Shown piece after piece: positions 1 to 41,442 of a stretch of DNA of 45,990 nucleotides (its first letter is position 1; the number at the start of each line of letters is the position of its first letter). Under the pieces are notes generated by a model, which ran no database searches, was not told the origin of the DNA, and saw only the letters and a program-made list of their open reading frames with translations. Made by a program: the position numbers and the translations under genes. The DNA is from Candidatus Aenigmatarchaeota archaeon. GTDB taxonomy: Archaea; Aenigmatarchaeota; Aenigmatarchaeia; Aenigmatarchaeales; Aenigmatarchaeaceae. The stretch is from the NCBI GenBank assembly GCA_016933455.1, contig JAFGAZ010000009.1, positions 1-45,990 on the forward strand, written 5' to 3'.

Positions 1-2690
1 GTTCCTGCATCGTCTTCTGTGAAGTTGGCATACCAGAAATATGTCTCATTGACGCAGTGCGTACAGTTTGTTGGTGTCATGTTGTAGCATTCGTCCAAAA
101 CATCCTCGCAGTTCTGCCATGCACCAGAACCTTGCTTTAGCTGAAGCACTATTGTCTCGTTGTTATAATCTCCTGATGTCGCGTTCACAGAAAAGTTCCA
201 GTTTATGCGGTCCCAAAGATCCGATATGGGCGTTATAGTCTTGTTGCTAAATTCTCTGAACGGTGATACATAGAAAAGCCAGCCCCTTTCAGCATCTTCC
301 AAAGTCGAGTTTGTATAGTATCCACTCTTGTTTACAAACATTGAAGCGTTGTAGAATTGCACTGGCGTGTCTATGTCTGTCTGCCAGTTGCACTGGTATG
401 CGTTTGCACCTATCAATGTCGACTGGCCGCAGTCATATCCGCTTGTTAAAGTGTCGTTTGCATAGTACTTGACTTCTTCATAGCCTGCTGTAGTGTTTAG
501 CCTTAATGCGTCTTCACAGTCGTCATAGCTGTAACCAAGGAAGGTCATGGCTCCAAGCTGTGTCACGTTTGTCGAGCCGTCTGGGTTGTTTAGAGTTATT
601 AGTATGTTTCCTTTTACGGAGATGTTTCTGTACAAGTAATCGGAGCTGGTATTTTGGTAGTAGCAAGAAAGTTCCGAGTCGTTAATTTCTGCCTTCCACT
701 GCTGCTCCCTTACCTGGAATTTTGGCGCACCTGCGTACTCGTCAAGGCATGTTGGATTAAAGTAGAAGTTGGAATAACCCGTGCTGTTGGTTTCATTGAC
801 AAAGTTGCTGTCAGAGTAGTATGTAACTGTTGTGTTACCTGTTGTTACAGAATACTTTATGGGGAAGTTCGCCATGTTCGTTCCGTTGTAGTTTGTTGCC
901 CTAAACACCAGCAAGTCTGTTTGGTCACCCAGTCTGTTGGCAGTCGAGTTGTGACCCTCTTCATAATTCAGATATATTGTGTCCTTTGTTATGGTAAAGC
1001 TCTGAGGAGTTGTTGAATTTGTCGAAAGGTTGTTGTTTGTTGCATTAAAGAAGAAATATTTTGTGCCAATGTCTGGGCAGTCAAAGTAATTTGTCCAGTT
1101 TAGAGTTTGAAGGCCACCTTCCCCTATGTCGTACGTCATACTGTCTATGAAAGTCCAAGGGCCTATTGCGCTGTCTCCTACCCAAAGGAAAACATCGACG
1201 TCGTTAATTCCTGTTGTGCTAACAGTTGTGTTGAATGTGAAAGGCGTTCCTCCCCACTGAGCTGATGAGGGGTCTTGCGTTATGTCGTCAAGGTATATTT
1301 TTATGTCAGGCTCCAAGTCAACGTAGAATGACTGCTCAGTTGTTTGGTTTTCAAGGTAGCTTGTTGTGTGATTGTACATCCTGAACTGGTAGTACCAAGT
1401 TCCTGCGTCGTCCTCTGTAAAGTTCCTGTACCAGAAGTATGTCTGGTTTATGCAGTTCGTGCATGTTGTGGAAGTTTGAGCCTCGCATTCAGTGCATTCA
1501 GAGTAGCTTCCGCTTCCCTTTCTTAGATAAAGCGTTATGTTCATCTGGTCCGAATTTCCAGATGTCGCATTCACAGAAAAGTTCCAGTTTATGTTGCTAA
1601 AGTACGCAGAATCAGGATTGACTGTTGCGTTATAGAACATTCTTTGCGGCTCTAGGTAGAATACGTCCTGGTCAAGCGAGATGTCATTGTTATAGTAGTT
1701 TTTGCTAGAGTTTATGGTAACATTGTACCAACCCGTTGGATAGCTTATGTCTGTGTCTATTGAGCATTCGCCGGCTGCTGAAGCTATGCACCAGTACTCT
1801 GTTCCTTCGTTAGACATTGTTATGTTTATTGTAGAGTCCGCAGTTCTGCTATTTCCACAATCATCAATGACAGTAGCGCTAAAGTCTATTGTCTGTCCTT
1901 GTGTAAAGTTAGAGCTTCCGTCTGGATCGTTTAGTGTATTGTATAGCGTTCCCATCAAAGTAAAGTTTGATGGATTTGTATTGTTGTTTTGAACACAAGC
2001 GTCTGTTTGTGTTCCTCCCCCCCAGTGGTGCACACCGAGATAATATTTGCTTTCGTCTTCACACCATCCAGCGTTCGTGAATATCTGTGACAAGTGACCT
2101 GTGCTGTTTGTGCTTGTCAAAAAACTTGTGTTCTGGTCAAATGCATAAGTTGAGACCCATATCTTTCCCGATTGTCCTCCATCATAACTTTGGTTATCTT
2201 TGTCATAAACCCTTACAACAAACTGTGTCGTGTCGGTTCTGTTTATAATAGAACTTTCTGTGGGAGTTAGATTTGTTACGTCTACATAGTCTTTGACCGG
2301 TGTGAAGTATATGTTTCCATAAGTGTAATATGTATCGTCTGTTCCTCCTGCATAATCAGAAGCATTGAATTTGTAATATTTAGCAGCTCCAAGAACCCCT
2401 AGGTCGTTTGAGTATGCGTCATAAATCGTTCCGCCACTACAGAGGAATTTTTGTGTTATGTTTGTCATGTTTCCATAAGAGTCATTCATCGGGCCTGTAA
2501 CATTGTTAGAGCCTCCCATCACAAATCCTGTTCCTGCTGTTGGCGTGTACCAAAGGCTTACGTTTGTCGTGTCTCTTTGTGGATCAGTGACATTAACTGA
2601 GAAGTTGAATGTTGTTCCCCATCCAGCAGAGAACCCAGATTCGGTATCGTTGACAACAGGTTCTATTAGTTCTGGCTCAGATTCTATCCA
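1..2690 (-). repeat. Two diverged copies of a ~1.39-kb (~460 aa) intragenic repeat; boundaries approximate
   Basis: 175-207 vs 1561-1593 match at 32/33 nt (INWNFSVNATS). 1-70 vs 1399-1468 both encode C..C.N.TYFWY.NFTEDDAGT (offset 1398). LNNPDGSTNVTQ/LNDPDGSSNFTQ and TNSTG also recur. Confidence 0.85.
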
Positions 2691-4583
2691 ACACCATGTG
2701 TAGTTTATCGTATATACGTCTGTTACTATTTTTTGGTTAGCTCCTCCAGCTCCAGAAGCCATAACTTCGATAGAATAATAATCTGATGCATTATAACCAC
2801 TTGTCAAAGTTAAACTACCTTCACAAGTGTTGGGAGCTGTGTTGCTTCCGCATTCCCATTGAGGTCCAAAGTAATCACCTGGAGGTACCTGTGTCCAGTT
2901 TCTGGCACTGTATCTTGCGTTTGTAAAAGATGCTGAATTGGGGTCAAGATTTCTTTGTGTTGTATTTGCAACTTTCACCCAACCCTGGTCTGTTCCACCA
3001 GCCTTTGTACCTGCGTTCATGTATCTTATGAAAACGCTTATGTTAGATATGTAACAGTTAAGAACACCAGGACATGGTTGAAGGTCTGGATATGTCCAGT
3101 TGTAGTGTTCATAAGTAACAGATCCGGCTCCTACGGCACCCCACTGTACGGCGTTGGTAAACTTTTGACATGTATAACCTGGCGGGTCGTATGCATATGC
3201 TACCTGATCTCCGAAGGTGAATTGCAAAGTAGCATAACCTGATTTTATCATATTGTTTGTCAAATAAGCAGTTTCGTTACACGAATAGTTCTCGATTAAA
3301 AGATGCTCTATTTCCAAAGAATCGTTTTGTGATAAATCGGAATAGTTATAGACATTACCAGAAAAATCAATTAGTTTAAGTGAATTGCGCAAAGAAATTT
3401 CTCCGCACATTATATCAATGAATTTCATTTCATTGAATGTTTCTGTTGTATCTTTTAGGAACTCGGTCCAACTAGCGTTTGTCGAGTTTATTGTTAGATT
3501 AGCTGTTCCAAAAGTCTCAAATGCTACTATCCAATCGTCCGCATCCTTAAGATATGTGTATGGATTCAAAACCTCTATAGAAACCTCAAAGATTTGCTCT
3601 GAGAGGTGCGGAACATTCCATTTTAGCTTGTCAATAAGACCGTCCTGATCAATGTCAAGCATGCTAAGATTGTACATTTCATCTTCTGTTACATCTATTC
3701 TCTGGTCGTCGCTTATCCAGTATAATTTTATCGAATTTTCAGGGAAATTTCCTATATCAGTCGATGCTGGGACGTTGAAATAGTGCAAAGGTGAGCTTAC
3801 ATTAACCAATTTCTTGTATTGACCAAGAGGAATTTCGCTTATTATTGGTGATTCGGTATAGTATTCAAGTTCATATTCCTTACTTTCATCTGCTTTGAGC
3901 TCTTCTTTCAAACTTTTTTCTTCGATTTTTAGTGATTTTTTGGTCTCTTTTTCCAAAAGGCTTACGTTGAAAGCGCTTTCAGGTATTTCCAGATCAATGT
4001 CGGTTAGAACAATTTCATCTAATTTGTTTGTTACCTTGAATTTTTTGACCCATTTCACAGGTTTTCCAATTTCTATTTCTTCATGTCCGCTTTCCAGAAT
4101 TTCTAATTCAAAAGATTCGGAGTCAATTGAAAAATCAGCTTCTTTACCTAAATCTATCAAATTCAGATGAGATTCAGTCGGATTCAGATAATTTCCACCT
4201 GAAAATACTGCCTTGATAGTGCCGTTGAAAGGAAGCGGAAAGTCAATAATACCATCTGAATTGGTGGTATCAGAATAAAGGGGAGTTTCATTCAAAAAGA
4301 AATCAATTCTTTGATTGGGAATCGCAGTCCCGTTGTCCATTAAAAGAACAGCCTTCATAAGGCCGTCGTCTATAGAAAGAGAAATAGAGGTGTTGGCCAT
4401 CACCTCTATTAAGAACGTGAATTCCTGGGAAGTTAAATCAGGCATGCCCAGATAATTGCCTGTTATTGGCGTGGAATTGGTCCAGTTCATTGTGACATTT
4501 GTGGCAAAAACAACTGCAGATGTTATTATGACCAGCAGAGGCACAAGCAGCTGGCTTTGTCCTGATTTGGCACTACTCTTCAT
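1..4583 (-). CDS. Giant secreted/surface protein, >1527 aa, 3' end outside window; Asn/Thr/Cys-rich with ~460-aa tandem macro-repeats of probable Ig-like beta domains
   Basis: Manual translation from ATG at 4583 (MKSSAKSGQSQLLVPLLVIITSAVVFATNVT...) stays open in one frame to the window edge (...YFWYANFTEDDAG). N-terminal hydrophobic segment, many N-x-S/T sequons, a DIDQDG Ca-binding-like motif. Start overlaps the upstream stop by 11 nt. Absent from the ORF track because no stop lies in the window. Confidence 0.9.
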   Translation of the reverse strand, partial: MKSSAKSGQSQLLVPLLVIITSAVVFATNVTMNWTNSTPITGNYLGMPDLTSQEFTFLIEVMANTSISLSIDDGLMKAVLLMDNGTAIPNQRIDFFLNETPLYSDTTNSDGIIDFPLPFNGTIKAVFSGGNYLNPTESHLNLIDLGKEADFSIDSESFELEILESGHEEIEIGKPVKWVKKFKVTNKLDEIVLTDIDLEIPESAFNVSLLEKETKKSLKIEEKSLKEELKADESKEYELEYYTESPIISEIPLGQYKKLVNVSSPLHYFNVPASTDIGNFPENSIKLYWISDDQRIDVTEDEMYNLSMLDIDQDGLIDKLKWNVPHLSEQIFEVSIEVLNPYTYLKDADDWIVAFETFGTANLTINSTNASWTEFLKDTTETFNEMKFIDIMCGEISLRNSLKLIDFSGNVYNYSDLSQNDSLEIEHLLIENYSCNETAYLTNNMIKSGYATLQFTFGDQVAYAYDPPGYTCQKFTNAVQWGAVGAGSVTYEHYNWTYPDLQPCPGVLNCYISNISVFIRYMNAGTKAGGTDQGWVKVANTTQRNLDPNSASFTNARYSARNWTQVPPGDYFGPQWECGSNTAPNTCEGSLTLTSGYNASDYYSIEVMASGAGGANQKIVTDVYTINYTWCWIESEPELIEPVVNDTESGFSAGWGTTFNFSVNVTDPQRDTTNVSLWYTPTAGTGFVMGGSNNVTGPMNDSYGNMTNITQKFLCSGGTIYDAYSNDLGVLGAAKYYKFNASDYAGGTDDTYYTYGNIYFTPVKDYVDVTNLTPTESSIINRTDTTQFVVRVYDKDNQSYDGGQSGKIWVSTYAFDQNTSFLTSTNSTGHLSQIFTNAGWCEDESKYYLGVHHWGGGTQTDACVQNNNTNPSNFTLMGTLYNTLNDPDGSSNFTQGQTIDFSATVIDDCGNSRTADSTINITMSNEGTEYWCIASAAGECSIDTDISYPTGWYNVTINSSKNYYNNDISLDQDVFYLEPQRMFYNATVNPDSAYFSNINWNFSVNATSGNSDQMNITLYLRKGSGSYSECTECEAQTSTTCTNCINQTYFWYRNFTEDDAGTWYYQFRMYNHTTSYLENQTTEQSFYVDLEPDIKIYLDDITQDPSSAQWGGTPFTFNTTVSTTGINDVDVFLWVGDSAIGPWTFIDSMTYDIGEGGLQTLNWTNYFDCPDIGTKYFFFNATNNNLSTNSTTPQSFTITKDTIYLNYEEGHNSTANRLGDQTDLLVFRATNYNGTNMANFPIKYSVTTGNTTVTYYSDSNFVNETNSTGYSNFYFNPTCLDEYAGAPKFQVREQQWKAEINDSELSCYYQNTSSDYLYRNISVKGNILITLNNPDGSTNVTQLGAMTFLGYSYDDCEDALRLNTTAGYEEVKYYANDTLTSGYDCGQSTLIGANAYQCNWQTDIDTPVQFYNASMFVNKSGYYTNSTLEDAERGWLFYVSPFREFSNKTITPISDLWDRINWNFSVNATSGDYNNETIVLQLKQGSGAWQNCEDVLDECYNMTPTNCTHCVNETYFWYANFTEDDAG

Positions 4584-5625
4584 AATCCACCACAACTTTT
4601 ATGCTGTTCACACCGATTTCCGACATATTCGTGATAACCCCTATCTCCGAGATGCAAGAGCTGGCGTTCATGTCGCCGCATGTTTCTATGGCATTGCCAG
4701 AAACTATCTCAAAGCCGACTGGAAGCAGCCATTTCACAAGAACATTCTTGGCATAAGCATTGCTTGATACAACCGCTGTGATTGATATCAGCTCCCCTCG
4801 GGTTATTCTCTGCGGATATGTCATGTCAACATCGAACACTGGTTTTATCGGATCTATAGATGTGCCGTTTAGCATGTCCTCGATGTCGATTGTTTGGTTT
4901 TGATCCTCTGTTTCGTTCGAAACATTGGTTTGCGTCGCATTGTCTGTATCATTTGCAGTGAAATTGACATCTTGCGACGTGTTTGTGTCATTGACAAAGG
5001 TGTCATTTGCCTCTGTCTCGTTAAAATCGGTGACGTTTTCCGTCAAAAAAGTTGTGTTAAAAGTGCTGTTTTCGCTGTTATTTTGCGTTTCTGAGCTTTC
5101 GTTAGTACTATCGACACTTCCGACAGTTTCCGTAAGGTTTTGAATTGTCGGCGGTTCGACAGTAGTATTTTGGGTATCGTTTGACCCTACCGTGTCGTTG
5201 AAAAAAGCGCTCAGATCCGACACGTTTGATGTGCTTGTTGTGGGGCTTGTGTTTATGTTCGATGTGTTTGTCGCATTCATGGTGCTGTTTGCGTATGCTA
5301 TGATGGCTGTCTGGCTTACAAGAAGGGTCAGTATCACAACAGACACCAAGAACTTTAGTCTGGCTGCTCCCTTTCTCTTCTTTTTGAGCCTTTCTATTAG
5401 CCTGCTGCCCTCTGCGCTATTCTTTATTTCCTGCTTTAGGTAGCACAGCTTTGCTGCCCCAACATCTCGCTGGAAGACTATTCCTTCCTTTGTTAGCTCA
5501 TTGATGTATTTTCTGCATGTGTGTCGATGCAGGCCCGATATACTTGCCAGAGAAAGAAGTGTCAAGCCTTCTGGATTTGCCATCAAGGCTTCAATTATGT
5601 ATTTTATAGGGTCCTTGCTAACCAT
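4573..5625 (-). CDS. Membrane-anchored winged-HTH protein: N-terminal wHTH, one TM helix, Asn/Thr-rich linker, C-terminal Ig/CARDB-like domain
   Basis: PEGLTLLSLASISGLHRHTCRKYINELTKEGIV (HTH), basic stretch KKKRKG, TM FLVSVVILTLLVSQTAIIAYA, sequon-rich stalk, and the segment YPQRITRGELISITAVV...KNVLVKWLLPVGFEIVSG. Confidence 0.8.
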   Translation of the reverse strand: MVSKDPIKYIIEALMANPEGLTLLSLASISGLHRHTCRKYINELTKEGIVFQRDVGAAKLCYLKQEIKNSAEGSRLIERLKKKRKGAARLKFLVSVVILTLLVSQTAIIAYANSTMNATNTSNINTSPTTSTSNVSDLSAFFNDTVGSNDTQNTTVEPPTIQNLTETVGSVDSTNESSETQNNSENSTFNTTFLTENVTDFNETEANDTFVNDTNTSQDVNFTANDTDNATQTNVSNETEDQNQTIDIEDMLNGTSIDPIKPVFDVDMTYPQRITRGELISITAVVSSNAYAKNVLVKWLLPVGFEIVSGNAIETCGDMNASSCISEIGVITNMSEIGVNSIKVVVDYEE

Positions 5626-6195
5626 CGAATATCACATATACAATATTGTACAATCTTTTGGCCAAAGATTTTGTAATCATAATCTTTCTGTCGACGGTAT
5701 TATATGCAGTAAAGAGCGTTTTTCGTCAAAAAATCGACAAGTCGAGAAAAAATCAACTGTCGAAAAATTTTATATATCCCAAATTGAAAGAATATATATC
5801 ATGTTCAAATCTGTTTTCAAGTCGAAAGATGATGAGAAGGAAAATCTAAGAAAAATCGTCAAGCTTCTCGACATGCGATATGCCCAGATGGCAATAGAGA
5901 TTGAGAGATTGAAGAATTTAGGGCAGAAAATCGACAGAATAGAGGCCAAAGTGCTTAATATAGATGACACTATTTCTTCGACAGGTATAAAGCTACAGCA
6001 AAGAACTATTGCCGTCAAGACAAAGGAAGCAATACGCATGATACTGCAAAAGTACAATGAGATAACACCTGCTCAATTGAGCAAACTAATCAAACTGTCG
6101 AGAACAAGGTGCAACGAGTATTTGAAGCAGATGGAAGACGAGGGCACAATGATGTCAAGGGTAGATAGTCGAAAAAAGTTCTATAGTCTTCGACA
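5111..6195. repeat. Dispersed TCGACA/TGTCGA motif array
   Basis: 11 exact copies: 5111, 5156, 5734, 5868, 5931, 5978, 6190 (forward) and 5522, 5689, 5758, 6096 (reverse). Additional GTCGA at 5741, 5821, 6168 and several CCGACA variants. Confidence 0.65.
5639..5777. promoter_or_regulatory. Divergent promoter region with palindromes and TATA box
   Basis: Perfect palindrome TACAATATTGTA (5639-5650); imperfect inverted repeat TACAATCTTTTGG/CCAAAGATTTTGTA (5649-5675); TTTTATATAT (5768-5777) preceded by an A-rich BRE-like run, ~25 nt before ATG 5801. Confidence 0.6.
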
Positions 6196-6199
6196 ATAG
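5801..6199 (+). CDS. Soluble coiled-coil + C-terminal winged-HTH DNA-binding protein (132 aa)
   Basis: Start moved to ATG 5801 downstream of the TATA box. Heptad-like N-half; HTH ITPAQLSKLIKLSRTRCNEYLKQMEDEG; wing RVDSRKKFYSL. Confidence 0.8.
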   Translation: MFKSVFKSKDDEKENLRKIVKLLDMRYAQMAIEIERLKNLGQKIDRIEAKVLNIDDTISSTGIKLQQRTIAVKTKEAIRMILQKYNEITPAQLSKLIKLSRTRCNEYLKQMEDEGTMMSRVDSRKKFYSLRQ

Positions 6200-6261: not shown

Positions 6262-6573
6262 TCAGAACTTGTTAAGCCAGTCCAGTATTTCCCTGCCCTT
6301 TGCCTTCAAGGAAGGCGAAATAAAGCTGCTAGTAGCATCATTTAGGTTCATTTCTATGCTTTCTAGCTTTAGCATGACTGGTGCTTTTTTTGCCCTGTTT
6401 CTCATAAGTTCAGCTCCTAGTATCATGAAATTCACAAGAAACAGCATTACTGTGATTTCCAGGCTAGGCTGTGTGAATAGCTGTATTACTGACACTAGCG
6501 CAACAAGGCCAAAAGCAACCCAAAAGTACTTCATAGAACTAATTGTAGTAAAAGCTTTAAGAATCTTCCTCAT
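6262..6573 (-). CDS. Small two-TM membrane protein, unknown function
   Basis: Two hydrophobic segments, short soluble tail; overlaps the upstream gene end. Confidence 0.7.
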   Translation of the reverse strand: MRKILKAFTTISSMKYFWVAFGLVALVSVIQLFTQPSLEITVMLFLVNFMILGAELMRNRAKKAPVMLKLESIEMNLNDATSSFISPSLKAKGREILDWLNKF

Positions 6574-7021
6574 CCGTATAGATAAGCTCTCCTAGTGAGA
6601 AGGATTCGCCTTTTTTCTTGTTTTCAAAGTCGTTCATCTTGTCTTTTATGCCAGACATCGAGTCCACCATGCCGTTGCCGAACTTTACTATTCTTTCCTC
6701 AAGGTCCAATGTCTTTTTGGAAAGCCTTTCAAGAAGGTAGGTCACACTCTCGTCATGCTTTTGAAGCTTTGTTTCCAGTGCAGAATTGTCAACTTTGGCT
6801 GATATGTCAGAGCACTTTTTGTCTATTGAGTCAAGCTTTTCTGAAAAGTTGTTTCCAGCTCCGCCTGATTTTCCATTCAACTGCACGCTGGCAGCAAGCA
6901 CAAAAAAGTCCACTATTAGCATTATCATCAAAGATTCCAAAACCCAGTAGCCAAACAACTGCACTGCTGTTAAAAGCAGTGTAAATGCTGTTACTAGCAA
7001 AAACAGTTTGGATAAATGCAT
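6557..7021 (-). CDS. Two-TM membrane protein with coiled-coil C-terminus, unknown function
   Basis: Two N-terminal TM segments, then a heptad-like charged region. Confidence 0.75.
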   Translation of the reverse strand: MHLSKLFLLVTAFTLLLTAVQLFGYWVLESLMIMLIVDFFVLAASVQLNGKSGGAGNNFSEKLDSIDKKCSDISAKVDNSALETKLQKHDESVTYLLERLSKKTLDLEERIVKFGNGMVDSMSGIKDKMNDFENKKKGESFSLGELIYTDEEDS

Positions 7022-10307: not shown

Positions 10308-11060
10308 ATGGAAATAAATGAGTTCTGTTCCATGCTTCAAGAGAGCAAGCAATTCGATGATTTGGAGATAAGAATTGTCAGGTCAATGCTAAAGCTTACC
10401 AACCGCGACCTTGTCAAGGCTTCTGCCAATGTAATAGCATCAGAGGCCGGCATGTCTGTTACCAATGCTTACAAGTATCTTTACTCTCTAGAAAGAAAGG
10501 GGCTTGTCGAGTCGGGCCAGGACAAGAACAAAGTTTTCTGGCTTTCAAGGTCGATAAACCCTTTTCCCAGGATAATGAGCTATGTTTCCAAGGATTATCT
10601 TAGGTTAAAGGACCTTTTTGTCAAGCTCGAAAAGTTATATGACGAGTACATTGACTTTAGGGGCAAGAGCATCTGGCAGGAAGAGAAGGCATACGAGCAA
10701 TACGAGGGCGACTTTGTAAGAAGAGCTGCCTTTATTTTCGATGTTGCCAAGAGCGAGATTCTAATTACAACCAAAAAATTCTTTGATGACATTGTGCTGC
10801 TTGAGGCAATCAAGCGTGCCATTGAAAGGGGAGTTAAGATCAGAGTCATTGCCTCTGAAATGTTCCCGCCAATGATAGAAAAGCTAAGGAAAATAAACAT
10901 TGACATGAGGCTTGGACGGGCAATGCCGTACATAATAATTGCGGACGAAAAGCACGGCATGACAATGGACGAGAATGAAAAGGGAATCTGGTTCCTAAAC
11001 TGCCAGACTGATTACAAGGACAAGTTCGAGCAGTTTTGGGAAAAGGCTCAGGCAATTTGA
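10308..11060 (+). CDS. TrmB-family transcriptional regulator
   Basis: N-terminal HTH (YKYLYSLERKGLV); C-terminal PLD-like effector domain (AKSEILI, AIERGVKIRVI). Confidence 0.8.
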   Translation: MEINEFCSMLQESKQFDDLEIRIVRSMLKLTNRDLVKASANVIASEAGMSVTNAYKYLYSLERKGLVESGQDKNKVFWLSRSINPFPRIMSYVSKDYLRLKDLFVKLEKLYDEYIDFRGKSIWQEEKAYEQYEGDFVRRAAFIFDVAKSEILITTKKFFDDIVLLEAIKRAIERGVKIRVIASEMFPPMIEKLRKINIDMRLGRAMPYIIIADEKHGMTMDENEKGIWFLNCQTDYKDKFEQFWEKAQAI

Positions 11061-34213: not shown

Positions 34214-34846
34214 CTAAATCCTTACTACAATTATGCTCCTATAAATATCTTTCCCTTCCTTTTTGGTTACAATCCTAAAGCTTTTCTTTATTTTCGCCTT
34301 AAATCTCCTCTTCATTGCAACAGCCATGCTGTTTGCAAAGTTCTTGTCTGTAAGGTAAACGTCAAAGCCGTTCTTTCTCTGGTCAGCCCTGTAGCTCTTT
34401 TTTTCTTTAACCATAACGTCGACCATAAAGTTCATGGCCTCTTCCGATTTTCCTCTTAGCTGCATTATGGCCTCATAGTAGCCTCCGGAATCCCTTGCGC
34501 AAGAGGGGCAAACTATCTTGTTTATCTTAAGTTTTATAACATGCCTTTCTTTTTTTGGTTTTTTGCAGTCTTCCAAAAAGCCCTTGGCGTCTATTGTTAT
34601 GTCTTCGTCAACGCCTATTTTGAGGCTGACATTTTGGCCCATAATTTTTATTTTGTCCTTTAACACGTCCTTTATTGTTATTTCCATCCACCTGTTTCTG
34701 TGCCTTACCTTGTCGCACCTGCTGCACATCTTTATCTGCAATTCCTTGGGCACCTTGACTAACTGGTACTTTTTGTTGTAGCAGTCCTCGCAGTAGCCCT
34801 CTACCAAATCGTTGGTTTTCTTGCCGCAAACAAAGCAAAACTTCAT
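34214..34846 (-). CDS. nmd3: NMD3-family ribosome biogenesis protein
   Basis: Four CxxC pairs, GYYEAIMQLR; ATG overlaps the upstream TGA (ATGA). Confidence 0.88.
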   Translation of the reverse strand: MKFCFVCGKKTNDLVEGYCEDCYNKKYQLVKVPKELQIKMCSRCDKVRHRNRWMEITIKDVLKDKIKIMGQNVSLKIGVDEDITIDAKGFLEDCKKPKKERHVIKLKINKIVCPSCARDSGGYYEAIMQLRGKSEEAMNFMVDVMVKEKKSYRADQRKNGFDVYLTDKNFANSMAVAMKRRFKAKIKKSFRIVTKKEGKDIYRSIIVVRI

Positions 34847-35967
34847 AGCACGTACCATAATGTTATCTCCAGTTCGGAAACCTCTGTCATGTCACAGCAC
34901 TGCGAAAAGAAGGACGAAACTGTTGTTGTTTCCCTTGTGGTGTAGACGCCCTTGGCAATCCATTCGTCGTTTCTTGATATTATCGCAGCTTTCAAAAGGC
35001 TTTTGTACTCGTCGCTTGGTTCAAAGTCTGATATCCAAATAGCGTTTTTGTTAGAAGCCATTGATGCCGCGCTTCCTGAAGGTCCCAATATCTTATTGCC
35101 CTCTACATCATTTAAATCAGAAAAATCCTCGAATATGAAGCCTGTTCTCGCTGCTTGTATTATAGCTTCTCCGGAATTGTAATCAAAGCTTTTCACCTTG
35201 AACGTGTTTCCATTTATGACAAACTCTTCTCCTGTGTTCAAGAAGCTTAGAACTTCTGTTCCTCTTGTTATGTTTATGTAAGAATTTCTGTATATTACGT
35301 TCCACGCATCCCCCCAAAGATACCAAATGCTGTTAACATCAAAGCCTATGCCCATGAAATACTTTTCAACATCCTCTAAAGACGGGTCGTATGTTACGAA
35401 CTTGTTCGGGTTCGAAACGCTGCCTGATGGCTGCAGGCCAAATATTTCGTTAAAGTCCGCGTTGTCATTCGAATAAGTTGCATTTATGCCCAAGACCACG
35501 CCGCCGTTGTCAAGGTAGTTTTTTATGTTTTCCTTTTCAGCTGTGTACCCCGTGTAGTTTACAAGGACTATCGCATCAAAATCAGGTATGCCGTTTTCTA
35601 TGTGATAATTCTGGACATCGAAAACAATGTACCTCCCGTTAACATATGCGGGCGTTAGGATGCTTTGCAGATATCCGCATGAAAGTTCGGTGCAGCCCAC
35701 GGTTATATTTGTTTTAGGGGAACCCAAAACTCTTATGCCATATCCCACGTTAGCAGGCTTTACCTTTTCAATGCCGGTGAAATCCGTTTCAAGAACTTTT
35801 AAAAAATTGTCATCGTTGTTTAGATAGTCTATTATGTTGTTTCCAACTGCCACAAGATCTGCATTGTTCCAGTTCTGCTTGACCCTTATGGCAAAGAACG
35901 CGCTTAGTATCACAACTATGAGAATTGATGCTACAGCAATTTCCAACAGATAAACAAACCCTTTCAT
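34843..35967 (-). CDS. Large minor pilin-like protein (class III signal)
   Basis: MKG|FVYLLEIAVASILIVVIL. Confidence 0.75.
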   Translation of the reverse strand: MKGFVYLLEIAVASILIVVILSAFFAIRVKQNWNNADLVAVGNNIIDYLNNDDNFLKVLETDFTGIEKVKPANVGYGIRVLGSPKTNITVGCTELSCGYLQSILTPAYVNGRYIVFDVQNYHIENGIPDFDAIVLVNYTGYTAEKENIKNYLDNGGVVLGINATYSNDNADFNEIFGLQPSGSVSNPNKFVTYDPSLEDVEKYFMGIGFDVNSIWYLWGDAWNVIYRNSYINITRGTEVLSFLNTGEEFVINGNTFKVKSFDYNSGEAIIQAARTGFIFEDFSDLNDVEGNKILGPSGSAASMASNKNAIWISDFEPSDEYKSLLKAAIISRNDEWIAKGVYTTRETTTVSSFFSQCCDMTEVSELEITLWYVL

Positions 35968-35968
35968 G

Positions 35969-36421
35969 CTACCAAAACTCCAGCGTCACGTTGCCATAAT
36001 CCCCGTCTATGTCAACGTGCCTTGTTTCTATTGTTGAGGGTGAGTCGAGCATATCATAGCCGCAAAAAAGAATAAGGTCTGACGAATCATATATTCTCAG
36101 CCTATAGCTTCCTAGGTCAAAATCATCTAGAAGATTGCAGTTGTCATAAAGAGCATCTATCTTGATTCTTGATAATTCGAGTGTGCCTGTTGCAAGTCCT
36201 ACTCTTCTAGTGCTCCATATGTTAACATTCCAGTTACTCGGGCTGCCAGGGTCTTCTGTTAAAATAGTTATTACATTTAGAGCCTTTGATTTTAGTATGT
36301 CTGATCTTGAATCGCTAAGTAGGTTTCGAAAAGTTATGTTGGTCTGATTCACTATGAAAATAAGTATTATAGCAAATATGAGTATTCCTGCAACGAATTC
36401 TATTCTCATCTGACCTTTCAT
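35969..36421 (-). CDS. Minor pilin-like protein (class III signal)
   Basis: MKG|QMRIEFVAGILIFAII (E at +5); PGSPSNW. Confidence 0.8.
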   Translation of the reverse strand: MKGQMRIEFVAGILIFAIILIFIVNQTNITFRNLLSDSRSDILKSKALNVITILTEDPGSPSNWNVNIWSTRRVGLATGTLELSRIKIDALYDNCNLLDDFDLGSYRLRIYDSSDLILFCGYDMLDSPSTIETRHVDIDGDYGNVTLEFW

Positions 36422-36426
36422 TCAAA

Positions 36427-37386
36427 TCACAATATCGTAAGTATGACTATTAGCGAAAAGAAGCCTGTAACAGACATTATTATGCTATGCTTTACGCCGG
36501 CTGAAACCGAGCCTTCTCCTATCTGACCTGCCACAAGTCCTGAGAATATTCCCTGCACAACTGCCATCAAGACAAACAATGCGTTGTAGTAGCAAGAGCC
36601 TCCTTGCTCGAATCCTACCATGCTGCAAAGGCCAGAAAATATCGGACAGTTTATGCACTGGATATCGTTTAGGCCCTCGCATTGCTTGCATGGGTCCTCG
36701 AAAGCGAATATCCCTCCTATTCCCCCGGCTGACTGGCTTTCTGTTCCTATGTTTAGAAGAGGTATTAGTGTTTGGGACAAACCAATGACTATGCCTATGA
36801 ATATGAAATATATCGCATACATGATGAACGTGTGCTGGGATGTTACTGACTGCCTTTCTTTTTCAGCCTCCTTTATGGCCGTTATGTCAGAGGCAGTTGA
36901 TTCCATTGTCCTGCCGATGTCGCCTCCTGAAACGTAAGTTTCGTTTATTATGCTAACAACTCTTGTTGTAAGCTTTGACTTTTTCATTCTTTCCGCAAAG
37001 TTGGCAAAAACGTCCTGTACCCTTATGCCCCAGGAGAGCTGGTTGTATACTTTCTTTATTTCCGGGGACAGCTTGCCATAGTCCACCTTGGAGGCTTGTC
37101 TTAGGGATTCGTGAAGCGTCAGGCCCACCTTTTGCGATTCTGCAAGATCCAAAAGGAAAATTGGCAGCTGGTCCTCGATTGCCCTGATCTTGGCGTACTC
37201 GAAATAAGAAATCAAGGCAAATGGGGCAATGCCGACTATCACTCCGAGCACAACAAGATTTAGCATGGCTGCGCTGAACTGGTAGAGCGCAAGGCCCAAT
37301 GTTATTAGTATTGCTGCGGCTACCAAAGGCAAATTCTTTGGCTTTGTTATTTCCTCTAGTATTTTGTTTTTCTTTTGCTTTTTCAT
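36427..37386 (-). CDS. Type IV pilus membrane platform protein (TadC/T2SSF)
   Basis: IEDQLPIFLLDLAE, DYGKLSPEI..QLSWG, QGIFSGLVAG...GVKH. Confidence 0.9.
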   Translation of the reverse strand: MKKQKKNKILEEITKPKNLPLVAAAILITLGLALYQFSAAMLNLVVLGVIVGIAPFALISYFEYAKIRAIEDQLPIFLLDLAESQKVGLTLHESLRQASKVDYGKLSPEIKKVYNQLSWGIRVQDVFANFAERMKKSKLTTRVVSIINETYVSGGDIGRTMESTASDITAIKEAEKERQSVTSQHTFIMYAIYFIFIGIVIGLSQTLIPLLNIGTESQSAGGIGGIFAFEDPCKQCEGLNDIQCINCPIFSGLCSMVGFEQGGSCYYNALFVLMAVVQGIFSGLVAGQIGEGSVSAGVKHSIIMSVTGFFSLIVILTIL

Positions 37387-37390
37387 CAAA

Positions 37391-38269
37391 TCACGCTGAA
37401 GGGGATATTGTCTTGACTAGTAAAATGAAGCCCACTGACACAAACGGCAGTATCAAAAATATTACTGCGAACTGCAAAAACATCATGGAAAGGCTCGATG
37501 TGCCTCCTATTATGGACATAAGCGCTGTCATTATTATGAAAAATATCGAGCCTATCAAAACAACTGTCAGATAAACCTCGATTAGCATAGAAAGCGTTCT
37601 CGAGTATTTCTCAAGACTTCTTCTGTACTCTGCTATGAAAAGCCTTGACTTTTCATGAAGATAGTTTCCCACGTTGCCCCCGCTTGAGAGCATTGTCTCA
37701 AGACCCCACAAGAGTTCCTTTAGTTCCTCTGACGGCGTTCTGCTTGCGGTTTTTCTTATGGCCTCGACAAGCTCCATGCCGAATGCCTCGACATCGCGGT
37801 ATATCTTGCCCATCTCTTGTGATATTTCTCCATAGTCCTTGAACTCAGACATTACCTTAAACATTGTTATAGGGGGTGCGCCCGATGTTGCTATTGTTGC
37901 CATGTAGGTTGTTGCAAACGACAAAGAAGAGTCAATGTTCTTCTTTCTTCTTCCTGCGGCCATGCTAGGGTATGTGTAGAACAAAAAGAACTGCACTATC
38001 AGTATGACGACAGTCATTGTGAAAGAAAGCAAAAAAGCATTGATGGCATCATGCAAAAGCAGAGATGTTATTATGACTATCGACGGAAACTCTATGATAA
38101 AGGTTCCAAGTATTACCAGAAACATTATGTAGACGTATTCCTGAAGGCTAAGCCCGATGTTTGCCCTTATCAAATCTGGCTTTATGCTATCGAAATAATT
38201 GATAAAAGGCTCAAGGCTCCTTCCAAAGAACTTGAAGGAAAGCTGCTTGAGCTGTTGCCATATGTCCAT
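37391..38269 (-). CDS. Type IV pilus membrane platform protein (TadB/T2SSF)
   Basis: RRKKNIDSSLSFATTYM..IATSG, YGEISQE, RTPSEELKELL. Confidence 0.9.
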   Translation of the reverse strand: MDIWQQLKQLSFKFFGRSLEPFINYFDSIKPDLIRANIGLSLQEYVYIMFLVILGTFIIEFPSIVIITSLLLHDAINAFLLSFTMTVVILIVQFFLFYTYPSMAAGRRKKNIDSSLSFATTYMATIATSGAPPITMFKVMSEFKDYGEISQEMGKIYRDVEAFGMELVEAIRKTASRTPSEELKELLWGLETMLSSGGNVGNYLHEKSRLFIAEYRRSLEKYSRTLSMLIEVYLTVVLIGSIFFIIMTALMSIIGGTSSLSMMFLQFAVIFLILPFVSVGFILLVKTISPSA

Positions 38270-38273
38270 CTTA

Positions 38274-40019
38274 TCATCTAATCTCGTCTAATAGATCCTG
38301 TTCCCTTGTATAGTAGAGTTTTATTATTTTTGCTACATCGATGTAATCGCTTATCTTGTTGTCGACCATCCATTTCATGACCCTTGTCCTGTTTTCTATC
38401 TGCTTGTCGATTGCGCTTTGCTTTATGCCAAACTGCATGCTTATCTTTTCCAAAACATTTGACTTGTTGACCTGCTTGTAGCCGTCGTTTACAGGGTCCC
38501 ACTTGAAGACCTCGTTTACAATTGGTATGTTCTTGTCTCGGTCAAATCCCAAAACTTCATATATGCTCTTTATTCTTCTTATGTAGCTTTGGCCGTATTT
38601 CATTCTCACAACAAAAACCACAATGTCTAGTGTTTCAATCAAGGATGCAGGCAGTTCTATTGGGGGAGTTGTTAGCCTGTCTATTAGCCTTTCCATAGAA
38701 TCGGCGTGTATTGTTGACATGCTCGGGTGTCCTGTTGCTATTTGCTGGAACAATACGTAGGCTTCCTTTCCTCTGACTTCTCCTACTATAAGATAATCGG
38801 GTCTTTGTCTTAGCGATTCCCTGAGCAAATCAAACAAGTCGACTTCTCCAATCTTTTTGCCTTCTACCTCGGTTATTGCGGTTCTTGCAACGCCCGGCAC
38901 CCAGTGGGGGTGTGGCAAAACAAGCTCAGCAGTGTCCTCTATTGAGACTATCTTAAGTTCAGGCCTTATGAAGAGCGACATGGCATTAAGTATTGTGGTC
39001 TTGCCTGTTGCAACGCCCCCGCTCACTAGAACCGACCTGCCGTGCTCAACCGCAAGCCAAAGATACGCTGCTATCTTCGGATCCATTGACTTGAAATTTA
39101 TGAGATTAACAGGCGTTAGCGGCTTTTTGGTGAACTTTCTTATGGTAAAGTTGCTTCCCTTTCTTGCAATGTCTGTTCCAAGCGTTGCCTGGACTCTTGA
39201 ACCGTCCGGCAGGCTGCCGCCTATCAGAGGATTTGCTATTGATATGTTCTTGCCGCATCTTTGCGCTACCTTGCTTACAAATGTGTCTAGTTCCTCTTTG
39301 TCGTCAAACACAACATTGGTTCTTATGCTTCCAATTATAGGATTCCTGTGGAACACGTAAAGTGGGATTCCAACACCGTCGCACGATATGTCCTCTATGT
39401 TGGGGTCTTGCATTAGAGCCTCTATCTTGTCTAGCCCCACAAAGTCTCGCTGTATGTAGTAGAAAATATCCTTCCTTTTGCTTGGAGGCAATTCTGCTGC
39501 CATCAGCTCTATTGTGTCCTCGAACTTTTTGAGCAAAAAACCCTTTGCCTCCCCCTTTCTTAGCGAGGTAAAATCCACATCGAGTTTTTCTATCAAATTA
39601 AGCTTTATGTTGTTTAGGAGTTTCTTTTCCTCGTCAGAAAGAATAGGCTCTTGCAGATAATAGACAAGACCGGTTTCTCTTCTGCTCCACTTTATGTTGG
39701 CGCTAGCAAAGGGAGTCCTGTCGCTTGAGGGTATTAGAGTATATACTATGTTTATGCCTTTGATGTCAATCTCAGGTTCTCTTACATTCACGGTTGTTCT
39801 TTCAAGTATTGATGAGCTTTTTTCATCTTCCTCTAATTTTTTAGCTTCAAGTTTCTCAACGTTTATTGCTGGTGCTTGCATAGGATATGGTATATAGTCT
39901 TTTGGCATGCCATAGCGCTCTTTCTTTTTCTGGTTTTCCAGCTCCTTGTAGCCTATGACAGCTTTTGAGAAAACTTTGTAGAGGTTTATCCTTTTTGGTG
40001 AACTGTGAAGCCTTATCAT
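38274..40019 (-). CDS. Type II/IV secretion (pilus assembly) ATPase
   Basis: DPNIEDISCDG, LPDGSRVQ, FTIRKF, GGVATGKTT, SIEDTAEL, LRQRPDYLIVGEVRG, TGH...TIHA. Confidence 0.95.
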   Translation of the reverse strand: MIRLHSSPKRINLYKVFSKAVIGYKELENQKKKERYGMPKDYIPYPMQAPAINVEKLEAKKLEEDEKSSSILERTTVNVREPEIDIKGINIVYTLIPSSDRTPFASANIKWSRRETGLVYYLQEPILSDEEKKLLNNIKLNLIEKLDVDFTSLRKGEAKGFLLKKFEDTIELMAAELPPSKRKDIFYYIQRDFVGLDKIEALMQDPNIEDISCDGVGIPLYVFHRNPIIGSIRTNVVFDDKEELDTFVSKVAQRCGKNISIANPLIGGSLPDGSRVQATLGTDIARKGSNFTIRKFTKKPLTPVNLINFKSMDPKIAAYLWLAVEHGRSVLVSGGVATGKTTILNAMSLFIRPELKIVSIEDTAELVLPHPHWVPGVARTAITEVEGKKIGEVDLFDLLRESLRQRPDYLIVGEVRGKEAYVLFQQIATGHPSMSTIHADSMERLIDRLTTPPIELPASLIETLDIVVFVVRMKYGQSYIRRIKSIYEVLGFDRDKNIPIVNEVFKWDPVNDGYKQVNKSNVLEKISMQFGIKQSAIDKQIENRTRVMKWMVDNKISDYIDVAKIIKLYYTREQDLLDEIR

Positions 40020-40438
40020 TCTAAATCAATCTCCCCGTTTTCAGCAGTAACTTTGATGCTTCCGCTGCTGCTGTATATTATATTGTTTTTTATTTCAATA
40101 TTAAAGTTGTATGAAGTCAGTGCAACGCCAATGTCGCTGCCTTCTATGCAGTCAAGCCTCAAAAAATTGTTCAAAATAGTGACAGTGTATATGCAGTTGG
40201 ATAGCTTTTCGGGTATATCCAAGTCGTAGCTTATTTTAGTGTTGGTATTTTCAGAAGTCTCATAAAGCCTTATTGCTGTCCCTAATATCATATGACCCGT
40301 CATTTCAAGCTGGTACTGTGTTGTGTGATCTTCGTATTGCACAATCATGTCCGAAAATATGTAGTATACCGAAACAATCAGGACAAGGCCGATGACAAAG
40401 AACATTACGTATTCTAGTGTCAGATACTGGCCCTTCAT
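40016..40438 (-). CDS. Minor pilin-like protein (class III signal)
   Basis: MKG|QYLTLEYVMFFVIGLVLI. Confidence 0.8.
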   Translation of the reverse strand: MKGQYLTLEYVMFFVIGLVLIVSVYYIFSDMIVQYEDHTTQYQLEMTGHMILGTAIRLYETSENTNTKISYDLDIPEKLSNCIYTVTILNNFLRLDCIEGSDIGVALTSYNFNIEIKNNIIYSSSGSIKVTAENGEIDLE

Positions 40439-40447
40439 AAGAGATAA

Positions 40448-40954
40448 TTACATGAAAGTTACTTTTATTTGAATCTTCTTTGTTGTAGCTTCTGTTATTG
40501 TTTCGCCTTTTTCAATTCTTATGTAGCTTGGTGTGTCAAGGCTTGAGCCTTCTGTAAAGAAGAATATGTTGTACTCTGCTTGAGGGGGGTATATTATTTG
40601 CAAAATAAGCTCGCTTCCTTCTTTTCTCTCCCTTATGTAAGAGCTGCCTTCTGATATGTTAACCCAGTTTTCCTGTATTTCTATCGAAAGGGGCGTTCTT
40701 ATTTCCAAGACGTTTGTCTCCTTTATTTCGGCTGTTCCCTGCACAGAGAACTCTATCTCCTTTTTCCCCCCGAATTTTATTACATTCGAAATGCCATCGT
40801 CGATATCCTTTGCCAACTTTTCAGCTGCTTCTAGCTTGGTAAAGTCCATGTTGTCCTCGAATATCTCCCTGCCCCAGATGGTGGCTGTTGAGAAAAGCGC
40901 TATGCCGATTAAAAACAGCAAAACAAAGACTATTGCTTCTGCCTGACCTTTCAT
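40448..40954 (-). CDS. Minor pilin-like protein (class III signal)
   Basis: MKG|QAEAIVFVLLFLIGIALF. Confidence 0.78.
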   Translation of the reverse strand: MKGQAEAIVFVLLFLIGIALFSTATIWGREIFEDNMDFTKLEAAEKLAKDIDDGISNVIKFGGKKEIEFSVQGTAEIKETNVLEIRTPLSIEIQENWVNISEGSSYIRERKEGSELILQIIYPPQAEYNIFFFTEGSSLDTPSYIRIEKGETITEATTKKIQIKVTFM

Positions 40955-40989
40955 TATAGATACATTCGCATTTCCGAATATATAGATTA

Positions 40990-41025
40990 AATAAAAAAGA
41001 AATTAGAAAAATTAAGAAAAAACAA
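40990..41025 (-). terminator. T-rich archaeal terminator after major pilin
   Basis: Three T5-T6 runs on the minus strand just after the stop. Confidence 0.5.
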
Positions 41026-41034
41026 TTCACGTTG

Positions 41035-41442
41035 CTACTCTAGAGTCTTTGATAAGCCTGCTCCTGATTCTATGACTACTCTGAGCGTCTGACCATCTGT
41101 ACATGCAGGACCCGTGAATGTTGCTGATTGTCCTGATGCAATTGATGCAACACCACCGGATACAGTTATTGTTCGAACAGTTCCGTCTACGAAAGCCTGA
41201 ACATTTGCTGTTGTCAGATTCGCTGTTCCCGTGTTCATTATTGTGAACTGGAGTGGTGTACAAGATGCAGATATTATTGAGAAACTCTTTGACATCTGGT
41301 CTGTAGAATGCTCAATGTTCTCTCCTGCACCTTCCATTAGGTCTGTAGCCATTGATGTGAACCAGGTGTAAGCCAATGCAGCCATAGCAACGACTATCAT
41401 TAAAATCAAAATAACTGCGATTACAGCGCTTACTCCCTTCAT
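41035..41442 (-). CDS. Probable major type IV pilin
   Basis: MKG|VSAVIAVILILMIVVAMAALAYTWF; SD GAGGTG; own TATA (~41505-41516); Cys pair. Confidence 0.9.
   Translation of the reverse strand: MKGVSAVIAVILILMIVVAMAALAYTWFTSMATDLMEGAGENIEHSTDQMSKSFSIISASCTPLQFTIMNTGTANLTTANVQAFVDGTVRTITVSGGVASIASGQSATFTGPACTDGQTLRVVIESGAGLSKTLE

Follow-up and report, generated by a model that had tools for sequence, protein, structure and literature searches.

Proteins that join a predicted DNA-binding domain to at least one membrane helix make up the class of transmembrane transcription regulators (TTRs), which includes ToxR, TcpP and CadC in bacteria and ArnR/ArnR1 of Sulfolobus; they often control surface structures, and some have partner proteins (PMC10269533). 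In halobacterial type IV pilus loci the membrane-bound regulator arCOG00381 (pfam11748) is encoded beside predicted major pilins (PMC4858521). The giant SPEARE proteins of Nanohaloarchaeota follow a plan of signal peptide, ~75 immunoglobulin (Ig)-like domains, membrane helix, cytosolic VirB4/TraG-like ATPase and terminal coiled coil (PMC10266531), and Hamm et al. pointed to Aenigmarchaeota as having relatives of their cytoplasmic portion (PMC6642349). Here we analyse a stretch of 45,990 bases (the window), which is the entire contig C17 of a 694-kb, 21-contig genome, 89% complete, from a symbiont-type Candidatus Aenigmatarchaeota archaeon. Near one end of the window two divergent genes face each other across a short spacer at the head of a giant gene. 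Gene A encodes a winged helix joined through a membrane helix to an Ig-like domain, and gene B a soluble winged-helix regulator, its start being taken as the ATG at 5801 (the mechanical open reading frame (ORF) opens earlier, at TTG 5501).

We consider it likely, from comparison of related loci, that the A/B pair and its spacer form a dedicated control module of the SPEARE-type giant membrane-protein operon in Aenigmatarchaeota, working by feedback through a regulator joined to the product. What is new here is the regulatory pair and its two operator types, the TTR class and the SPEARE-type giant gene being already known. An initial annotation of the window had not recognised a described archaeal system at this locus, which stands in part: transmembrane regulators (PMC10269533) and SPEARE-type proteins (PMC6642349, PMC10266531) are both described, and we found no paper on the regulatory pair. 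Specifically, we found no published description of a soluble regulator paired with a product-fused one, with two operator sets, before a SPEARE-type gene, and the main texts of PMC6642349 and PMC10266531, supplements aside, make no mention of helix-turn-helix (HTH) regulators.

Conservation of the pair and of its operators

In a first synteny set of 60 relatives, each of the nine matches to B at E <= 1e-19 had an A homologue next to it in divergent orientation. After A came a giant ORF (1,667 to >6,400 codons) at eight of these loci, which is every contig that continues, the ninth (G002) ending inside A; the pair is conserved as a unit and goes with the giant gene, as the initial annotation had supposed. 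Three weaker B matches (G047, G051, G055) were also divergent from an A-like winged helix, and four others (G042, G046, G054, G057) had no A match on the same contig. B was detected in 136 of 371 genomes of the phylum (E <= 1e-5).

The architecture survey covered 38 B loci from genome contigs, eight of them the same records as relatives in the synteny set. Thirty-five were informative; loci with B at the contig end (L061, L070) or with another gene upstream (L083) were set aside. Twelve loci resemble the window, with a protein of winged helix, membrane helix and Ig domain followed by the giant gene. At eight more, and in one degraded copy, the winged helix and membrane helix form the N-terminus of the giant ORF itself. 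The A-type winged helix is missing from the remaining 14, which keep B; at least 11 of them encode a short-leader membrane-Ig protein, then the giant gene. Furthermore, paralogous loci in three genomes carry one or two free-standing winged-helix genes (~65–70 aa), a membrane-Ig protein and a second giant gene. Judged by these gene orders, the A-type domain is optional and mobile, and the constants are B, the Ig protein and the giant gene. Mapped on a maximum likelihood tree of B, the distribution of the A-type domain takes four changes to explain, at least two of them forced by well-supported branches, and one tight clade (support 100/100) contains all three architectures. One A/B/dyad arrangement (L054) lies on a contig labelled Candidatus Thorarchaeota; the label of this bin is probably wrong, because the B tree groups the locus with those of Aenigmatarchaeota.

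Conserved operators are present in the spacer (Table 1). Its alignment across three genera contains an 18-bp dyad, a GGCC-centred palindrome, at least three GTCGA/TCGAC boxes and a TATA-like box as invariant blocks. The palindrome sits between the dyad and an A/T-rich stretch and stays symmetric through base changes in relatives (TTGGCCAA, CTGGCCAG, CCGGCCGG, AGTCTAGACT). The last GTCGA/TCGAC box abuts the TATA-like box TTTTATATAT, which from its position and conservation is the putative promoter of B.

In a search allowing at most two mismatches in the 12 fixed positions of TTGTAC-N6-GTACAA, all 21 loci that have an A-type winged helix carried the dyad, 152–185 nt upstream of B, and none of the 14 that lack the domain did, against a background elsewhere in these loci of seven matches in 321,841 nt. 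The window's copy has two mismatches in its left half, as has that of its nearest relative, and its 16-mer is unique in this genome at <=2 mismatches. Within the clade of 100/100 support, the sole member without the winged helix is also the sole member without the dyad, keeping a collapsed TGTACGTACA, and a distant relative with a changed recognition helix has a changed dyad, TGGACAtataTGTCCA, but unchanged GTCGA boxes. Such boxes occur upstream of B in all 35 informative loci, whatever their architecture (two or more boxes in 34). The spacer holds five GTCGA words where 0.24 are expected and is the densest GTCGA cluster in the genome; a genome-wide search for further clusters gave weaker ones only (4–5 boxes), from which no regulon could be defined. 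We assign the dyad to the A winged helix because it accompanies the domain in 21/21 loci and occurs in 0/14 loci that lack it, and the boxes to B because they are present in all architectures; the dyad is thus probably bound by A and the GTCGA boxes by B. The dyad as a B site was considered and rejected, since it is absent from all 14 B loci lacking the A-type domain.

Table 1. Features of the window, by position, strand and basis of assignment
Feature	Position	Strand	Basis
Giant SPEARE-type surface-protein gene, 5' part (1527 codons)	3..4583	-	runs off contig
Gene A, membrane-anchored winged-helix protein, 350 aa	4573..5625	-	ORF, HTH_24, AlphaFold2, Foldseek
Overlap (11 nt) of A stop codon (4573-4575) and giant-gene ATG (4581-4583)	4573..4583	-	translational coupling
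A residues 264-349, Ig-like beta-sandwich	4579..4836	-	AlphaFold2, Foldseek, relatives' Pfam matches
A residues 113-260, disordered stalk with 25 N-glycosylation sequons	4846..5289	-	AlphaFold2, sequon count
A residues 92-110, single membrane helix after basic patch KKKRKG	5296..5352	-	AlphaFold2, hydrophobicity
A residues 6-63, predicted cytoplasmic winged helix (HTH_24)	5437..5610	-	Pfam, AlphaFold2, Foldseek
A-B spacer, 175 bp, genes divergent	5626-5800	.	ORF coordinates
Dyad ATATACAATATTGTACAA (family TTGTAC-N6-GTACAA), 10 nt upstream of A start codon; assigned to A-type winged helix	5636..5653	.	alignment, motif search
Second short palindrome TTTGGCCAAA, GGCC-centred	5657..5666	.	spacer alignment
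GTCGA/TCGAC box array (5690-5695, 5734-5738, 5741-5745, 5759-5763); assigned to B	5690..5763	.
Conserved TATA-like box TTTTATATAT, ~24 nt upstream of B ATG	5768..5777	+	spacer alignment
Gene B, soluble regulator, 132 aa from ATG at 5801	5801..6199	+	ORF, HTH_24, AlphaFold2
Type IV pilus-like locus	34843-41442	-	T2SSE ATPase (38274-40019), two polytopic membrane ORFs, five small ORFs

The two regulators and the giant gene

Residues 10–50 of A match Pfam HTH_24 (PF13412) at 24.0 bits, above the curated cut-off of 21.9. An AlphaFold2 model built on a 33-row alignment places a winged helix at residues 6–63 and a beta-sandwich at 264–349, both with a predicted local distance difference test (pLDDT) score >90, and between them a single long helix at 70–114 and disorder at 115–255. 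Residues 92–110 are the sole strongly hydrophobic 19-mer in the protein. The preceding 15 residues contain eight K/R and the following 15 contain none, and therefore the N-terminus should lie inside the cell. The order of winged HTH, membrane helix, sequon-rich stalk and Ig-like domain read initially from the letters is borne out by these data, together with the fold of the N-terminus and its cytoplasmic placement. In the family alignment the recognition helix has invariant H33-R34-H35-T36, K39 and Y40, and the membrane helix is marked by a conserved R/K-x-G followed by x-x-Q-L-K-L. Foldseek searches with the N-terminus matched MarR/ArsR-type regulators.

The part of A predicted to lie outside consists of a stalk, which varies in length among relatives and contains 25 of the 27 N-x-S/T sequons in the protein, and of the beta-sandwich, for which Foldseek returned generic Ig-like sandwiches only (TRAP subunits, macroglobulin domains, an adhesin domain). 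More distant A homologues match Pfam NEW3/NPCBM_assoc and DUF11, A itself gives a weak match to bMG10, and no sensor-domain family was matched by the outside part in Pfam or Foldseek. With a predicted DNA-binding domain and at least one membrane helix in one protein, A falls within the TTR definition given in PMC10269533 and, on these sequence and model predictions, is a transmembrane transcription regulator in that sense. Its different type of DNA-binding domain and its lack of a recognised sensor domain place it outside the ToxR/CadC family; a Pfam scan at E <= 1 gave HTH_24, HTH_IclR, HTH_11, MarR_2 and HTH_36 and no Trans_reg_C.

B matches HTH_24 more strongly (residues 81–115, 30.4 bits against the same cut-off), and its winged helix bears the invariant motif K-L-S-R-T-R-C-N-E-Y-L. 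AlphaFold2 models a helix at residues 3–61 and a three-helix HTH at 72–114, with the wing modelled poorly; the long N-terminal helix is probably a dimerising coiled coil. Foldseek with this model gave nothing significant, the top row being an Lrp/AsnC-type HTH at E 0.31. B is much better conserved than A, with 93% against 68% identity to the closest relative.

The initial annotation had described A and B as a head-to-head pair of related winged HTH proteins. The two ORFs, their divergence and the HTH_24 assignment of both hold. The relationship itself is weaker than was implied: BLASTP found no match between A and B, and profile–profile comparison of the winged helices (hhalign) gave 34% probability, E 4.3e-4 and 25% identity, so that judged by their profiles the two are related at family level only. 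Recent duplication was rejected as their origin, since BLASTP found nothing and the profile match is weak. The motif that the two were said to share is weakened as well: within the A family neither its C nor its EG is conserved, C37 being variable and most members having AG in place of EG. Complex prediction for A residues 1–92 with B scored 0.01 against a mark of 0.32, a result that speaks neither for nor against a heterocomplex.

The stop codon of A overlaps the start of the giant gene, as had been noted initially, and the 11-nt overlap recurs in five relatives, with one of 8 nt in a sixth. The 1527 residues encoded before the contig ends contain 78 sequons and match no Pfam family. In a relative of the same family the orthologous giant ORF is complete, with 10,205 residues. 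It starts with K-G-Y-S-G-Q-S-Q-L-L-I-P and a hydrophobic stretch, and continues with a huge ectodomain, a NEW3 domain, one membrane helix, a cytoplasmic P-loop DUF87/HerA domain (DUF87 29.8 bits, cut-off 23.2) and a coiled-coil tail. In the genome studied here, such a gene is represented at one end of contig C11 by its final 4233 codons (C11:68277-80978), with NEW3, membrane helix and DUF87/HerA_C ATPase arranged as in the complete relative. DUF87 (33.6 bits) and HerA_C (30.1 bits) both exceed their cut-offs, and HerA-like PDB chains match the ATPase region at E down to 2e-6. Because of its similarity to the complete relative, the C11 piece is likely the 3' part of the window's giant gene. By its predicted architecture, and by the statement on Aenigmarchaeota relatives in PMC6642349, the downstream giant gene belongs to the SPEARE type known from the literature. 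Contig C20 carries a second giant gene, a paralogue with at least 4349 codons.

Proposed product-coupled feedback and its alternatives

In the explanation we favour, B would be the constant core regulator, acting on GTCGA boxes that flank both divergent promoters, and A would supply a second, optional regulator domain joined physically to the exported product. The A winged helix sits before the membrane helix of a small Ig-like surface protein co-translated with the giant protein; encoded first on the shared message, A would be inserted into the membrane with the surface proteins, and its winged helix would recognise the dyad between the A/T-rich promoter stretch and A's own start codon. Each round of product would then make one copy of the DNA-binding domain and place it in the membrane, so that transcription of the ~30-kb operon would respond, through occupancy of the dyad, to the amount of product. 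The simplest form of this is negative feedback on a very costly operon. A is most likely a repressor because of the position of the dyad, repression being a guess from that position. Coupling to the product is seen in the conserved stop/start overlap and in the fusion of the winged helix to the giant protein itself at eight loci. Domain architectures, synteny, operators and the co-occurrence of these with the two proteins are observed; the pairing of proteins with sites, the direction of regulation and the form in which A would act, tethered or cleaved, are inferred.

Several points weigh against this explanation. The giant gene is broken by the contig end, and we only infer its link to the ATPase-bearing contig. 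A looser spaced dyad pattern, at the mismatch level of the window's dyad, has 15 sites in the genome. Neither the dyad nor the GTCGA boxes were found before the free-standing winged-helix paralogues (L034, L035, contig C18), so A-type domains need not use the dyad. Finally, the operator assignments derive from co-occurrence among related genomes, with ~2–4 independent changes.

A doubtful alternative has the A winged helix cut from its membrane anchor to act as a free repressor that reports export or processing of the product to the promoter, the candidate cutters being a class III (prepilin-type) signal peptidase acting at the conserved G before the membrane helix or a site-2-type intramembrane protease. 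The giant protein and most of the Ig proteins start with a basic leader, G/A, Q-[STA]-[QE]-[ILV]-L and a hydrophobic helix, resembling the MKG-Q starts of pilin-like ORFs in the window's type IV pilus-like locus (whose five small ORFs begin MKG-Q, MKG-V or MKG-F), and G-Q-x-Q-L-L directly after the winged helix is kept in distant A homologues. However, the window's A has G-A-A-R-L-K rather than G-Q, and these N-termini are compatible, too, with a standard Sec signal peptide that has an A-x-A-like site, the reading given to a published nanohaloarchaeal giant protein (PMC10266531). Profiles of archaeal pilin/class III N-termini (TIGR02537, Pilin_N) matched none of the giant, Ig or A proteins, a weak test in that four of the five local pilin-like ORFs also fail and one matches TIGR02537. 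The genome does encode a Peptidase_A24 prepilin peptidase (contig C20; 46.8 bits, above cut-off). Cleavage at the G would free a domain of ~90 residues, close to the size of the related winged helices (~65–70 aa) that stand alone in paralogous loci; their existence means that the domain can work untethered. We hold it unlikely that, in the prepilin-type version of this idea, a surface protein of prepilin-like (class III signal) type has the A winged helix as its unusually large, cleavable leader, from which a cytoplasmic-face prepilin peptidase frees one sequence-specific repressor per processed subunit; if so, transcription of a 30-kb SPEARE-type gene for ~10,000 residues would be metered by the export/processing flux of its own products. 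We found no description in the literature of a signal peptidase freeing a transcription factor in this way in archaea. Site-2 proteases are known to cut single-pass proteins whose N-terminus lies inside, as in RseA/sigma-E with RseP and pro-sigma-K with SpoIVFB. A is likewise a single-pass protein predicted to have its N-terminus inside, and a gene of the site-2 protease family (Peptidase_M50) adjoins the paralogous winged-helix locus in 3/3 genomes examined, but those winged helices are already free. Unlike RseA/sigma-E, A would itself be the DNA-binding protein, with no anti-sigma factor, and its cleavage is hypothetical. Giant-fused forms also showed an intein-like (Hint) match just outside the membrane in 3/3 tested (L057, L067, L077; Pfam Intein_splicing at ~residues 250–410), which at 16–27 bits stays below the cut-off of 35.8.

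Other readings keep A in the membrane. That A is a ToxR/CadC-like one-component sensor, with an Ig-like ectodomain sensing an outside cue such as host contact and thereby altering dimerisation and DNA binding, was the analogy first proposed and now looks decidedly unlikely. The topology would suit it, with a DNA-binding domain inside, one membrane helix and a folded domain outside; transmembrane regulators are common in archaea (PMC10269533), and the operator is a dyad, for which a dimer would be needed. The analogy fits poorly with the outside part, which is interchangeable (Ig at 12 loci, giant protein at eight, the winged helix missing at 14, at least 11 of which keep the Ig protein), resembles generic beta-sandwiches (TRAP, macroglobulin, adhesin) rather than any sensor-domain family, and is separated from the membrane by a 140-residue disordered stalk, a poor conduit for a conformational signal; moreover, the DNA-binding domain is HTH_24 and not OmpR-type. 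A winged helix that is optional and mobile, being Ig-fused, giant-fused or absent, therefore argues against a ToxR-like external sensor and for product-coupled feedback. The initial annotation also offered a DNA-to-envelope tether, in which A would hold the promoter of the 30-kb gene at the membrane and keep transcription, translation and export of the ~10,000-residue protein together, rate-setting being secondary. A probably binds a single site at its own operon and is membrane-anchored, its gene opens the operon and is coupled in translation to the giant gene, and the giant protein also has a cytoplasmic HerA/FtsK-superfamily ATPase, all of which a tether would accommodate. We nevertheless find this very improbable: 14 loci make the giant protein without any A-type domain and others have free winged helices, so tethering is dispensable, and the dyad, as positioned in the alignment, lies between promoter and start codon, the usual place for archaeal repressors to bind. 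A binding site that is a specific dyad at the promoter of A itself fits a regulator better than a tether.

Neighbouring genes, significance and comparison with known systems

Several further genes recur around the system. A MinD/ParA-like ATPase gene lies downstream of the second giant gene (L048, contig C20) and, in distant lineages, directly after or convergent to B (L032, L033, L082–L086). ORFs of 736 and 508 aa downstream of giant genes matched no Pfam family. On contig C18 of this genome (L002), an A-type winged helix at 3-200 (-) is cut by the contig end, with a 185-aa Peptidase_M50 gene at 724-1281 (+), ~500 nt upstream; a similar neighbourhood occurs in two other genomes (L034, L035). 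Beyond B in the window, two small ORFs, 6262-6573 (-) and 6557-7021 (-), encode N-terminal membrane helices and coiled-coil tails without a Pfam family, and at least five relatives have them at the same position, between L11 and B and convergent to the latter. The adjoining ribosomal protein L11 gene, 7053-7361 (-), has 102 codons and encodes the C-terminal RNA-binding domain alone, against 166–168 codons at the same position in relatives. Ribosomal_L11_N had no match anywhere in this 89%-complete genome; either the N-terminal domain is lost or the assembly is at fault. Farther along, a TrmB-family regulator gene, 10308-11060 (+), encoding a TrmB HTH and a Regulator_TrmB domain, with a weak PLD-like match, keeps its place beside the FtsZ block in relatives.

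SPEARE-type giants are leading candidates for how DPANN archaea hold and exploit their hosts, and in this lineage one such gene takes up ~4% of a 0.7–0.8 Mb genome; we know of nothing on how their expression is controlled. The locus offers a compact, testable circuit, two small DNA-binding domains and two operator types within ~175 bp, conserved across the phylum. Furthermore, the three states of the regulator domain (on its own, as part of an accessory surface protein, or as part of the giant protein) amount to a natural experiment on tying a transcription factor to an exported product.

The giant gene resembles the nanohaloarchaeal SPEARE plan in its N-terminal signal, thousands of Ig-like residues, membrane helix, VirB4/HerA-type ATPase and coiled coil, a likeness drawn by architecture. 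As with arCOG00381 (PMC4858521), an archaeal membrane-associated regulator is encoded beside the surface-structure genes it presumably controls; A belongs to another family, with no match to pfam11748, and fusion to a structural protein is not described in the excerpted text of PMC4858521. Among TTRs, A is typical in that a single protein combines DNA-binding domain with membrane helix and has its N-terminus predicted inside. It departs from ToxR and CadC in having an HTH_24 (Lrp/MarR-like) rather than an OmpR-type domain and no recognised sensor domain. In contrast to TTRs generally, the A-type DNA-binding domain is added optionally to a structural surface protein or to the giant protein itself, and A is paired with a constant soluble regulator that would have its own operator set.

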